Positions 2,919 to 52,430 of a stretch of 64,000 nucleotides of DNA are shown piece by piece. The stretch is from Eledone cirrhosa (taxonomy: Eukaryota). The notes beneath the pieces are model-generated. The model had not been told where the DNA came from. It saw only the letters and a program-made list of their open reading frames with translations, and did not search any database. The DNA lies in contig OZ024754.1 in assembly GCA_964016885.1 (NCBI GenBank), positions 12,772,001 to 12,836,000 of the forward strand, read 5' to 3'. Numbering within the stretch: the first letter of the stretch is position 1; each line of letters starts with the position of its first letter. The translations under genes and the position numbers were made by a program.

Positions 2919-3240
2919 TCATCATCATCATTTCATTTTATGTCCGCTTTTTCCCTGCTTGCAAAGGTGGGACGGGAACTGATTTTGGCTTGATTTCTAC
3001 AGCTGGATGCCCTTCCTAACACCAACCTCATTTACAGTGAGTACTGGGTACTTTTTTACCGTGGCACCTCCACGACCACTTTGCAGTGGAATGATATGGA
3101 CCCCAGTCCCTATCATCTCATTTCTACAGCTGAGTAAACTGGAGCAATGTGAAAATAAAGTGTCTTGCTCAAGGAAACAACACATCAAGACACTTTATTT
3201 CACATTGCTCCAGTTTACTCAGCTGTAGAAATGAGATGAA
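2919..3240 (-). mobile_element. SINE family A, 5'-truncated, with a short fold-back
   Basis: Reverse complement of ~1005-1276; 3187-3240 is an inverted duplicate of ~3113-3167. Confidence 0.8.
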
Positions 3241-3242
3241 AT

Positions 3243-3530
3243 GAGACTGAGAGAGGGAAACTGAGAGAGACATACACTGAGAGAGGGAGATTGAGAGAGA
3301 CATACTGAGAGATGGAGACATACACTGAAAGAGGGAGAGAGAGAGACATACACTGAGAGAGGGAGATTGAGAGAGACATACTGAGAGATGGAGACATACA
3401 CTGAAAGAGGGAGAGAGAGAGACATACACTGAGAGAGGGAGACAGAGAGAGACATACTGAGAGAGACATACACTGAAAGAGAGAGACAGAGAGAGACATA
3501 CACAGAGAGGGACATACACTAAGAGAGACA
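3243..3530. repeat. GA-rich minisatellite (GAGAGACATACACTGAGAGAGG variants)
   Basis: Tandem degenerate units visible directly. Confidence 0.8.
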
Positions 3531-16584: not shown

Positions 16585-16588
<4 letters not shown>

Positions 16589-16718
16589 GTGGTTACACAA
16601 CAGTTAGTTCACCATACCGAGAACAATTGTTTCACCTTCGCGGATCTTCAGCTGAAGATCCGCGAAGGTGAAACAATTGTTCTCGGTATGGTGAACTAAC
16701 TGTTGTGTAACCACTTCT
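16585..16718. repeat. Perfect 134-bp palindrome containing a hammerhead core on each strand
   Basis: Centre TTCAG|CTGAA at 16651/16652; each arm reads CTGAAGA-TCCGCGAAGGT-GAAA-CAATTG-TT; extra partial arm at 16486-16516. Confidence 0.9.
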
Positions 16719-20009: not shown

Positions 20010-20067
<58 letters not shown>

Positions 20068-20097
20068 AGATCAAAAGATGGTTAAAAGAGTTCCATG

Positions 20098-20168
20098 TAT
20101 TTTATTATGCGCATTTCAAAAACAAATATCATCATGAGATGAGATTTGCGTTTTCGTCAGATAAAATA
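20098..20168 (-). ncRNA. Minimal type I hammerhead ribozyme in a fold-back unit (20060-20273)
   Basis: Minus strand TATTTTAT-CTGACGA-[16-bp helix II]-GAAA-TGCGCA-TA-ATAAAATA; the 3' half and tail are duplicated in inverted orientation at 20214-20273. Confidence 0.85.
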
Positions 20169-20278
20169 GGGTGACATGATATGAAGGTTAAAAAACACTT
20201 GTGAATAGTGCAGTTTGAAATGCGCATAATAAAATACATGGAACTCTTTTAACCATCTTTTGATCTTATATTATTTAT

Positions 20279-20455
20279 AGCAGTATCGGTAGAGAGTTGG
20301 ACGCCATGCTTTGACGCATAGAGTTACGGCCCTTGCCATTCTGAGTTCAAATCCCGCCGAGCTTAACTTTGCCTTTCATCCTTACGGGGTCGATAAAATA
20401 AAGTACCAGTAATGTACTGGGTATTTGCTGGCCTTGTGCCAAAAGTAGAAACAAG
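20279..20455 (+). mobile_element. SINE family C
   Basis: Matches the family C head, core and tail. Confidence 0.85.
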
Positions 20456-31380: not shown

Positions 31381-33820
<2,440 letters not shown>

Positions 33821-33938
33821 GTATGGATTCACCGAACATTTATTATAATGCTCGGTGTGTTTGTAAACAAACATTCCGTATTAAGCCGTAGTGTCCAGCA
33901 ACCATCGTTGCTCGTTTGTTCAACACTGACAAAGGAAC

Positions 33939-33978
33939 CATGTACTAGTTTCAAGCTTATTAGCTATCGTCAGCAACG
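33939..33978 (-). ncRNA. Very compact hammerhead-like motif
   Basis: CGTTG-CTGACGA-TAGCTAATAAGCTT-GAAA-CTAG-TA-CATG; palindromic ACTAGT helix III; weak helix I. Confidence 0.55.
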
Positions 33979-34194
33979 TATACCATCCTGCCAGATTGTT
34001 GAATGTATATACTTACCTTATGCATATTAACGGCTGAGTAGCCCAATTTGCATATTGAGTGGGTTAATCGGCCGGGTGCACCGAAAACGGTAAACGGAAA
34101 AAATGAAACAAAATTTCATTTCCCACTCTTAGTACGGCTGTTACTTAAATATAAGTATGTACACGTACATACATATATGTATACTCAGCCGTTA

Positions 34195-34425
34195 ATATAT
34201 ATAGTTTATCATATGATAAACTATATATATATGTTTGTGTCTATATTGTATCTGTATTATTTTTGACCGTTGGTCAGTCAATGGCAACATTGAGGACCGA
34301 ATAAATTAGATTACCGATATAAAAGACACAGAAGCGAAAAGCGAAAACCAACCAAACAGTGAGTGTATTCTGTTATTAATTCTGACAATATTACACAAAT
34401 ATGACCCTCCCCAAGTATAACAATA
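34195..34425 (+). mobile_element. Copy of the 44-kb hammerhead family tail, starting at the predicted cleavage site
   Basis: Begins TGATAAAC at 34214, equivalent to 44096; 17-bp fold-back at 34195-34211. Confidence 0.8.
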
Positions 34426-34486
34426 TATATATATATAATATATATATAATATATAAGATCAAAAGATGGTTAAAAGAGTTCATGTC

Positions 34487-35002: not shown

Positions 35003-35063
35003 TTATATTTTGTCTGATGAGGACGTACTGTTGTACATCCGAAATATGTATAATAAAATGTAA
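35003..35063 (+). ncRNA. Minimal type I hammerhead ribozyme, cleanest example in the window
   Basis: TTATATTTTGT-CTGATGA-GGACGTAC(TGTT)GTACATCC-GAAA-TATGTA-TA-ATAAAATGTAA; 11-bp helix I (with G-U pairs) and canonical G10.1-C11.1. Confidence 0.9.
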
Positions 35064-42109: not shown

Positions 42110-42394
42110 CACACACACACATATATATATATACACAAATACTGTATATATATATATATGTACATACATATATACATACATATATACATACATATATATA
42201 CATATACTCATATATATATACACACACACACACATCTGTACATATACTCATATATACATATACACATACACATATATATATATATACATGCACATACATA
42301 TATATATATACATGCACATACATATATATATATATATACATACACACATATATATATATATACATATACATATATATATACATATACATATATA

Positions 42395-42600
42395 TATTGT
42401 ATCTGTATTATTTTTGACCGCCGGTCAGTCAATGGCAACATTGAGGACCGAGTAAGTTAGATCGCAGATATATATATATAAAAGACAGCGAGAAGCGAAA
42501 ACCAACCAAACAGTGAGTGTGTTCTGTTATTAATTCTGGCAATATTACGCAAATATGACCCTCCCCAAATATAACAATATCTGTTTCGACACACGATTTC
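42395..42600 (+). mobile_element. Copy of the 44-kb hammerhead family tail
   Basis: Matches ~44125-44330. Confidence 0.8.
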
Positions 42601-43745: not shown

Positions 43746-43777
<32 letters not shown>

Positions 43778-43780
<3 letters not shown>

Positions 43781-44362
43781 TGTTATACTTGGAGAGGGTC
43801 ATATTTGTGTAATATTGCCAGAATTAATAACAGAACACACTCACTGTTTGGTTGGTTTTCGTTTTTCGCTTCTGTGTCTTTTATATCGGTAATCTAATTT
43901 ATTCGGTCCTCAATGTTGCCATTGACTGACCGACGGTCAAAAATAATACACATATAATAGAGACACAAACACATATATATAGTTTATCAGAGTTCTTTCG
44001 TTGCACATCTTTGAAAAAATGGCATAGACATACAATGCAACGGGAGGAAACAATAGCACCACTGACGATGTTGCAGATGTGCAACGAAAGAACTCTGATA
44101 AACTATATATATGTGTTAGTGTCTATATTGTATCTGTATTATTTTTTACCGTCGGTCAGTCAATGGCAACCTTGAGGACCGAATAAATTAGATTACTGAT
44201 ATAAAAGACACAGAAGCGAAAAACGAAAACCAACCAAACAGTAAGTGTGTTCTGTTATTAATTCTGGCAATATTACACAAATATGACCCTCCCCAAGTAT
44301 AACAATATTTGTTTTGACACACGATTTCATATAAAAAACCTCGCAAAACTAATTCATCGCCG

Positions 44363-44365
<3 letters not shown>
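43778..44365 (+). mobile_element. Fold-back unit with ~230-bp arms and a hammerhead motif at 44057-44100
   Basis: CA-CTGACGA-T-GTTGCA(GATG)TGCAAC-GAAA-GAAC-TC-TG; 43778-44010 is the inverted copy of ~44076-44308. Confidence 0.8.
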
Positions 44366-44429: not shown

Positions 44430-44925
44430 TCTTGTAGTTTGCTTGAAGCATTATCAAATAGGAAAAACAAATTTAAATAATTTTGAAAACCATACAATGC
44501 ACTAGAAAGAAAATCAAAATTGCTATATTTAACAAATGATTCTTACCTTAGCAAATTTAATGATCCCAAATATTTTCGGGTTTATAAACCCATTGATAAT
44601 TATCAAGGGAGTAGCCCTATGAGAGACTTAAAAGATCGATAAGAGTTCACTTGTTTCTTTAGACGGTAGATTTAAGTTAAATCAGCTTCGAGACAAATAA
44701 GTTAAATCAGCTTCGAGACAAATAAGTTAAATCAGCTTCGAGACAAATAAGTGAACTCTGATCGATCTTTTAAGTCTCTCATAGAGATGTTTCCATGATA
44801 GTGGGTTTATAAACCCGAAAATATTTGGGATCATTACATTTGTTAAGGTATGATTCTTTTGTTATATTAGTAATCTTGATTTTCTTTCTAGTGCGCATTG
44901 TTTGGTTTTCAAAATTGTTTAAATA
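44430..44925. mobile_element. Fold-back unit with a degenerate hammerhead and a 25-bp x3 spacer repeat
   Basis: Arms ~44470-44655 and ~44748-44923; GGGTTTATAAACCC-GAAA-ATAT-TT-GGGA; spacer repeat at 44676, 44701 and 44726; second family member at 58590-58806. Confidence 0.7.
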
Positions 44926-48910: not shown

Positions 48911-49240
48911 ATAAGTTAAAACAACAAAATAAAAAATCAAGTCATTAGAGATATACTTCACTGCTTTACGATCGTTTCTAGATGGTGATAATACATTGTA
49001 TCTATACTCAGTTATTGATCTATATAAGTTTACAAACTATCAGATAGAGAGAATATTTACTTACATGCATATCACCAGCTGTTTTCAAAAGCAATAATAA
49101 TTTTATTCTGATAGTTTGTAAACTTACATAGATCAATAACTGAGTATAGATACAATGTATCATCACCATCTAGAAATGATCAGAAAGCAGTGAAGTATAT
49201 CTCTAATGACTTGATTTTTTATTTTATTGTTTTAACTTAT
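48911..49240. repeat. Fold-back unit, ~134-bp arms, carrying the 3' half of a hammerhead
   Basis: 48911-49044 is inverted at 49107-49240; the minus strand of the left arm reads GAAA-CGATCG-TA-AAGCAG. Confidence 0.75.
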
Positions 49241-52208: not shown

Positions 52209-52430
52209 GCCGGGTTCAATCGGGGGTACTCACAGTAATTAAGGTACTCAATATATAGCAGAGTATAAATATTGAATATAGAAATGGCTTCTACAAGACT
52301 AGAACTGTTTCATCCGAAGGAAATCATCAGGAAAGCCCTAGTCCTGTAGAAGCCATTTCTATATTAAATATTTATACTCTGCTATGTATTGAGTACCTTA
52401 CTTACTGAGGGTACCCCCGATTGAACCCGG
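52209..52430. mobile_element. Fold-back unit (~93-bp arms) with a hammerhead-like core in the loop
   Basis: Minus strand CTGATGA-TTTCCTTCGGAT-GAAA-CAGT-TC-TAGTC; the arms are near-perfect inverted copies. Confidence 0.7.

Follow-up and report, generated by a model that had tools for sequence, protein, structure and literature searches.

One-base excess of 5' ends among copies of a Penelope-like retroelement family at its predicted hammerhead cut in Eledone cirrhosa

Introduction

EN+ Penelope-like elements (PLEs) that carry minimal hammerhead ribozymes in their pseudo-LTRs have been described by Cervera and de la Pena (2014, PMC4209133) and Craig et al. (2021, PMC8557442). The minimal hammerheads of metazoan PLEs are reported to be nearly inactive on their own in vitro (PMC4209133), and it has been suggested that Penelope hammerheads may be passengers (PMC8557442). 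For the PAc/Poseidon element of the green anole (Frangieh et al. 2024, PMC11167929), cleavage is described as requiring protein and, in this one system to have been reconstituted, as not needed for insertion in vitro; no RNA-seq reads are reported to end at its cut site, and the main text of that study gives no count of genomic 5' ends at the cut. Ribozyme-shaped 5' junctions are known from R2 elements with 5' HDV-like ribozymes, in which the kind of 5' junction seen in the genome is correlated with the place where the ribozyme cuts (Eickbush et al. 2013, PMC3774820). The same logic is applied here to the question of whether the minimal hammerheads of animal Penelope-like elements cut in vivo. 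Searches of the open-access literature listed no paper that, judged by its title and the opening of its abstract, tallies genomic 5' ends at the cut of a Penelope hammerhead.

We analyzed a 64,000-nucleotide stretch of the Eledone cirrhosa genome (GenBank assembly GCA_964016885.1, contig OZ024754.1, positions 12,772,001 to 12,836,000; here, the window) and a repeat family represented in it at 34.2 kb and 44 kb (here, family A). Element and hammerhead alike belong to known kinds. Neptune and Nematis elements are defined by a CX2-5CxxC linker between RT and EN and by (TA)n targeting (PMC8557442). Family A shares with them the order pseudo-LTR, ORF, pseudo-LTR; an RT followed by a CX4CXXC linker and a GIY-YIG-type end; (TA)n targets; inverted, 5'-truncated partners; and an optional tail. 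Like the minimal hammerheads of PMC4209133, its hammerhead has an extra base before stem II, a G10.1-C11.1 pair, and a palindromic helix III. Discrete internal RT starts that give tail-plus and tail-minus 3' ends, AT-rich targets, and, apparently, uncut RNA as the main substrate are features in common with PAc/Poseidon (PMC11167929), which belongs to a different clade by its linker motif.

Two further systems differ more clearly. Non-LTR retrozymes (bioRxiv 10.64898/2026.07.22.740005) likewise have type-I hammerheads tied to PLE pseudo-LTRs and also leave many solo monomer-like copies, but they are tandem hammerhead-to-hammerhead units, whereas the family A copies examined are dispersed, truncated pieces of an ORF-bearing element; because the copies join an RT-EN ORF and are dispersed, we rejected the assignment of family A to the non-LTR retrozymes. 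The part of that preprint considered here reports no 5'-end count at the cut. In R2, the cut makes the normal 5' end, whereas in family A the hammerhead marks about 1% of the copies and the main path ignores the cut; an R2-like rule, under which most copies take their 5' end from the cut, does not hold for this family.

Results

The window belongs to contig C14 of the 3.0-Gb genome used for the family searches. Positions in the element are counted from base 0, the first base 3' of the predicted cut, which is 44096 in the window. In the 44-kb copy, GAACTC occupies 44090-44095 and TGATAAAC follows from 44096, which places the predicted cut at 44095/44096. The 34.2-kb copy starts with TGATAAAC at 34214 and is preceded by TA and an exact 17-bp inverted copy of its own beginning. 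For both copies, the coordinates of the original prediction were correct. The family A features of the window are as follows.

34214-34426, plus strand: 5'-truncated family A pseudo-LTR copy of subfamily S1, base 0 to +212, then (TA)n
34212-34213, no strand: TA spacer separating the two arms, most likely foreign to S1
34195-34211, minus strand: exact 17-bp inverted arm, 0 to +16, which begins at the cut and stops in the internal TA run of the element
44015-44364, plus strand: family A copy running from about -81 (5' end) through the hammerhead to a 3' end within the +255/+261 tail
43777-44010, minus strand: inverted arm paired with the 44-kb copy, running from -21 (5' end) to +212 (3' end)
42393-42592, plus strand: another truncated family A copy, starting near +28, 89% identity
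61102-61362, minus strand: older family A relative, 77% identity, hammerhead decayed

At 34.2 kb, a short retro-copy of the pseudo-LTR of a Penelope-like element begins at the predicted hammerhead cut. It is 95% identical to the 44-kb copy across 213 bp; the 44-kb locus is itself a head-to-head pair, with arms starting at -81 and -21. The exact start at 34.2 kb depends on the origin of the TA, since subfamily S2 has a native TA directly 5' of the cut, which would shift the start to -2. Because the copy has the marker of S1 at +57 and lacks all four S2 markers (log-ratio -8.2; an identical marker pattern also occurs in 1 of 31 S2 training copies), the TA is most likely not native to its subfamily, and the 5' end would lie at base 0. 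The same TA spacer recurs in two full-arm palindromes, L091 and L100, and a third, L106, has three TA units.

Family A is a 4.05-kb Penelope-like retroelement, and the 34.2-kb and 44-kb copies are pieces of its 3' pseudo-LTR. A DNA search of the 3.0-Gb genome returned 2,893 candidates. The copies end 3' in (TA)n at +212, +255, or +261 and reach upstream into the ORF to varying extents; in two loci (L334 and L336), the ORF is flanked by two hammerheads, 4,046 and 4,088 bp apart. The encoded protein (P0001) has the RT motif YVDD, with a weak Pfam RVT_1 match (E value of 2.5e-5, below the curated cut-off), and a C-X4-C-X2-C linker upstream of EN. Its C terminus shows, by eye, the GIY-YIG-type motifs VVYSIRC..YIGET and R..EH; a Pfam search of the protein gave no GIY-YIG match. 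The pseudo-LTR arrangement, the head-to-head junctions, and the tail-plus and tail-minus 3' ends fit an EN+ Penelope-like element, and by the motif definition of PMC8557442 the predicted protein makes family A one of the Neptune or Nematis type. Twelve identical family A copies spaced 10-40 kb apart form a segmental tandem array at C6:26.53-26.82 Mb. Head-to-head long palindromes of other repeats occur in the window at 44471-44924, 48911-49240, 20055-20279, 16585-16718, and 3104-3249 and probably share the insertion style of family A.

The hammerhead of the 44-kb copy, as predicted from its sequence, is composed of the following parts, all on the plus strand.

44062-44095: minimal type-I hammerhead core, predicted cut at 44095/44096
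44062-44068: CUGACGA
44069: extra U
44070-44085: stem II, closed by G10.1-C11.1
44086-44089: GAAA
44089-44094: palindromic helix III
44095: C17

Of the features of the minimal type-I class, the CUGANGA and GAAA-UH core, the extra base before stem II, G10.1-C11.1, and the palindromic helix III are present. Stem II has a predicted energy of -6.2 kcal/mol, stem I is weak (two pairs adjoining the core plus a distal 4-bp helix, -2.0 kcal/mol; the class has a helix I of 4-5 bp closing the core), and the helix III dimer is computed at +1.4 and 0.0 kcal/mol; helix III occurs in two self-complementary forms among 125 read-through copies. An Rfam scan of the 64-kb window gave no match at the gathering score, and the hammerhead is not the lowest-energy form when the whole 44-kb motif is folded freely. 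U16.1 is found in 125 of 125 read-through copies (which are not independent of one another), and position 17 is U in 65, A in 46, C in 14, and G in none of them; because U16.1 is invariant and position 17 is never G, the register of the cut is fixed. In a relative of family A, found as L241 and in the flank of L111, helix III is identical and stem I is perfect over 4 bp in the same register, which lends supporting evidence to the predicted position of the cut.

To retrieve truncated copies, the search patterns combined an exact downstream anchor with non-native letters upstream. Anchored copies that read straight through the cut number 3,232 (1,557 of S2 and 1,675 of S1 plus S3). An alternative search (93 of 93 rows), in which 23 loci were first called at 0 against 3.6 per base at -3 to -7, enriches TA-flanked ends at even positions; the main count therefore used a filter independent of TA phase. 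It comprises the first 100 of 132 matches, which extend from C1 as far as C15:40 Mb and which we estimate to cover about 85% of the genome. The peak position, base 0, had been named before counting, and 5' ends were called by a script with subfamily markers after the loci were fetched. Twenty-six of the 100 matches were dropped: 18 intact copies with local changes (12 of them belonging to one tandem array), five internal deletions, two duplications, and one second arm. Internal deletions with their 3' edge exactly at the cut were seen in L330 (C4:143.80 Mb, family A) and at C5:81.65 Mb (family E).

Among the matches listed, 74 counted 5' ends lie between +2 and -21, distributed as follows.

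+2, +1, 0, -1, -2: 7, 0, 12, 6, 9
-3 to -12: 5, 3, 4, 2, 2, 1, 2, 1, 0, 1
-13 to -21: 5, 0, 0, 4, 0, 3, 5, 2, 0

Base 0 thus holds 12 of the ends among these listed matches, against 40 over the 19 bases from -3 to -21 (2.1 per base), a 5.7-fold excess (95% interval, 2.9-10; Poisson P of 2e-6, overdispersed negative-binomial P of 5e-4). Without two doubtful calls (L112 and L118), 10 ends remain at base 0 among the matches listed (P of 7e-5 and 3e-3). For the null, true ends were placed uniformly, flanks were taken from TA, the inverted element, and the genome, and junctions were weighted for microhomology; this simulation gives 1.8 expected ends at base 0 at every weight tried, while it reproduces the raised counts at +2, -2, -5, -16, and -19. 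When TA flanks are excluded, nine of the listed ends remain at base 0 against 1.7 (P of 8e-5), and when symmetric fold-backs are excluded as well, seven of them remain (P of 0.002). The peak is present in both S1 and S2, whose sequences differ just 5' of the cut.

Our analysis shows that this one-base excess of family A 5' ends at the predicted cut is real and family specific. The plot of 5' ends that had been proposed as a check gives a one-base peak at the UH site, and the uniform distribution of breakpoints was not seen. All searches pooled, 24 distinct loci start at 0, including the 34.2-kb copy of the window; scaled up, there would be about 24-31 cut-start copies, or 0.7-1% of anchored family A. 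An early exclusion search, called by eye on the first 100 of 304 matches (C1 to part of C3), found no ends at 0, and one of its matches shifted to 0 once subfamily calls were applied. Three copies ending at 0 to -2 (L110, L223, and L226) carry the marker of a rare C17 subfamily, S3, which accounts for 1 of the first 100 read-through matches listed for S1 plus S3; with this marker, the ends of L223 and L226 sit at -2 and -1. An enrichment of S3 near the cut could mean that the NUC form cuts better.

The inverted partners provide a second view of the same junctions. If both cDNAs derive from one cut RNA, then the inverted partner cannot pass base 0. Of the 14 inverted junctions at 0, 13 have a partner that does not extend past the cut; at -3 to -21, the figure is 15 of 32 (P of 0.003). 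With symmetric cases left out and partners called by eye included, the figures are 9 of 10 and 16 of 34 (P of 0.03). Symmetric palindromes make up 7 of 24 loci near the cut versus 3 of 31 unselected loci (P of 0.08). The suggestion that junctions at the cut have less microhomology was unsupported, as it is not significantly lower there than elsewhere (P of 0.17-0.37).

Three other hammerhead-bearing families of the genome (families B, C, and E) were tested in the same way as family A, but by eye and on the first 100 matches each. Families B and C are represented in the window.

33810-34190, minus strand: family C element with its own hammerhead (core at 33973), adjoining the 34.2-kb copy
52210-52430, no strand: family B palindromic unit, with a hammerhead-like core at 52330-52303 on the minus strand

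Family C lacks G10.1-C11.1, and a U-U pair closes its stem II; its stem I (-10.5 kcal/mol) and helix III dimer (-4.8 kcal/mol) are stronger than those of family A. It shows no peak, with two ends at the cut versus 3.3 per base upstream in 100 of 177 matches listed. Family E (found in L033, L044, and L184) has a textbook fold, the best of the families tested, and gave three, at most five, ends at the cut versus 2.0 per base in 100 of 123 matches listed. Among those matches, the 95% upper limit of the fold excess in family E is 4.4-5.8, the comparison with family A has a P value of 0.05, and eight ends lie at -5, a hot spot away from the cut; a family A-like peak in family E is unlikely. Three- to fourfold peaks at non-cut positions occur in the other families. 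Family B (100 of 469 matches listed) gave zero and five ends at two candidate cuts versus about 3.7 per base. It is an element of about 140 bases with at least 2,550 candidates, mostly head-to-head palindromes centered just 5' of a degenerate hammerhead core, and most of its copies start 6-9 bases 5' of that core. Other repeat families contribute additional hammerhead-like cores to the window, at 35014 (plus strand), 22440, 29410 (plus), 29309 (minus), and 52053 (plus); the motif at 35014 shows G10.1-C11.1, and a 12-bp stem I and a palindromic helix III were recognized in it by eye.

The family B unit at 52.3 kb had been put forward as a second case, its inverted arm starting within one base of the predicted site. 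That coordinate stands: the arm begins at 52338, and 52338-52341 equal 52299-52302, the four bases 3' of the predicted cut. Its value as evidence does not. The core at 52.3 kb has neither G10.1-C11.1 nor a stem I adjoining the core, and family B natively carries the four-base junction word both just upstream of the core and right after the cut, so the junction is one of microhomology; with this and with no peak in family B, we rejected the unit as evidence of cleavage. The original prediction allowed that two cases could be chance; at the level of family A, 12 of 74 ends at base 0 against 2.1 per base are above chance.

Two observations qualify the picture. On chromosomes C1-C3, the three largest, there is no family A peak: they hold 1 of 12 cut-start ends versus 24 of 40 background ends among the matches listed (P of 0.002, for a split chosen post hoc). 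In addition, a broader zone of ends exists upstream. In a sample of 90 family A copies unselected for ends at -66 to -104 (with two pairs of rows that are arms of one locus), 14 end within these 39 bases versus five in the next 155 bases (P of 7e-7); position -66 by itself has five ends in 43% of the genome. This zone, of which the copy starting at 44015 in the window is one example, far outnumbers the cut class. When a sharp start site was sought at -61 to -85, a broad spread was found, and -86 is confounded by point mutants. A possible source of the ends at -66 to -104 is run-off where transcription of the pseudo-LTR starts, below a TATA-like run.

Discussion

Several origins of the peak can be weighed against cleavage. 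The cut-start copies are neither one clone nor, judged over about 470 bases, split copies. Amplification of one ancestral short or palindromic master starting at 0, by which many events would be one, might be read from the TA-spaced palindrome common to 34.2 kb, L091, and L100, from one rare variant common to L091 and L106, and from the frequency of short palindromic copies in family B. However, 21 S1-side and 5 S2 cut-start copies share rare variants no more than random sets do (P of 0.64 and 1.0), their subfamilies and partners differ, and no common unique flank was found among the cut-start copies compared; such a master is very improbable. The least probable origin of all is the splitting of intact copies at base 0 in DNA by a later insertion or microsatellite growth. 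An endonuclease of this type nicks AT-rich DNA, including its own pseudo-LTR (PMC11167929), yet none of the 28 junction rows examined has an upstream hammerhead half in the same orientation over a distance of about 470 bases.

A family-specific junction or fall-off hot spot, unrelated to catalysis and noticed for its coincidence with the UH site, deserves more weight. The absence of a peak in families B, C, and E, the non-cut hot spots there (such as the one at -5 in family E), the uneven chromosome distribution, and the fact that family A was picked because a cut-start copy had been noticed are all in line with it. Nevertheless, we consider it unlikely, given that the other hot spots lie mostly at TA microhomologies, that the simulation gives none at base 0, and that the peak survives without TA flanks and in two subfamilies while partner arms also halt short of the cut. 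A little less likely again is a real end or block at base 0 with no cut, be it an RT stop at a folded or protein-bound core or a minor transcription start. Such a block would leave an identical partner-arm pattern, and the anole protein affects hammerhead folding (PMC11167929); on the other hand, the strongest helix, stem II, has only two and one ends at its 3' foot (-9 and -10), and a start exactly on the scissile bond seems unlikely a priori.

We therefore favor, as probable though well short of certain, occasional self-cleavage in vivo followed by copying of the cut RNA to its end. In the family A transcript, the hammerhead would precede the ORF and lie close to the 5' end, the layout seen in the full-length locus L334. 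A small share of transcripts would undergo cleavage after H17. The form that cleaves would probably be a dimer paired by the palindromic helix III, and the protein of the element may assist, as is reported for its anole counterpart. With a nicked (TA)n target supplying the primer, reverse transcription would begin at +212, +255, or +261 and run off at the cut end, base 0, and the cDNA end would then be joined either to (TA)n at the target or to another cDNA of the same cut RNA. Likewise unable to pass 0, this second cDNA would give rise to head-to-head palindromes such as the 34.2-kb copy, whose second cDNA may have been primed in the internal TA run at +8 to +16. Most insertions would copy uncut RNA, and in that case cleavage is a side path.

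The original prediction held that self-cleavage defined the 5' end of the reverse-transcribed RNA. For the class of about 1% of family A copies that form the peak at the UH site, this reading is probable; as a general rule it does not hold, since a cut-start class of 0.7-1% compared with 3,232 copies that read through means that cleavage does not generally set where the element begins at its 5' side. Our findings thereby set a limit: cleavage is a side path taken by about 1% of copies and not the step that fixes the element's 5' end.

With less confidence, we propose that 5' ends may serve as a fossil assay of ribozyme activity. Family A would then record in vivo cleavage at single-base resolution and indicate that cut RNA is insertable, often as two cDNAs head to head; compared across families, such ends might show which hammerheads fire in the germline, with the quality of the fold being a poor guide. 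Where the 5' ends of copies peak at the scissile bond, this would constitute heritable germline evidence on whether the minimal hammerheads of animal Penelope-like elements cut in vivo, and the 5'-end test requires a genome assembly alone and is applicable to any species and family.
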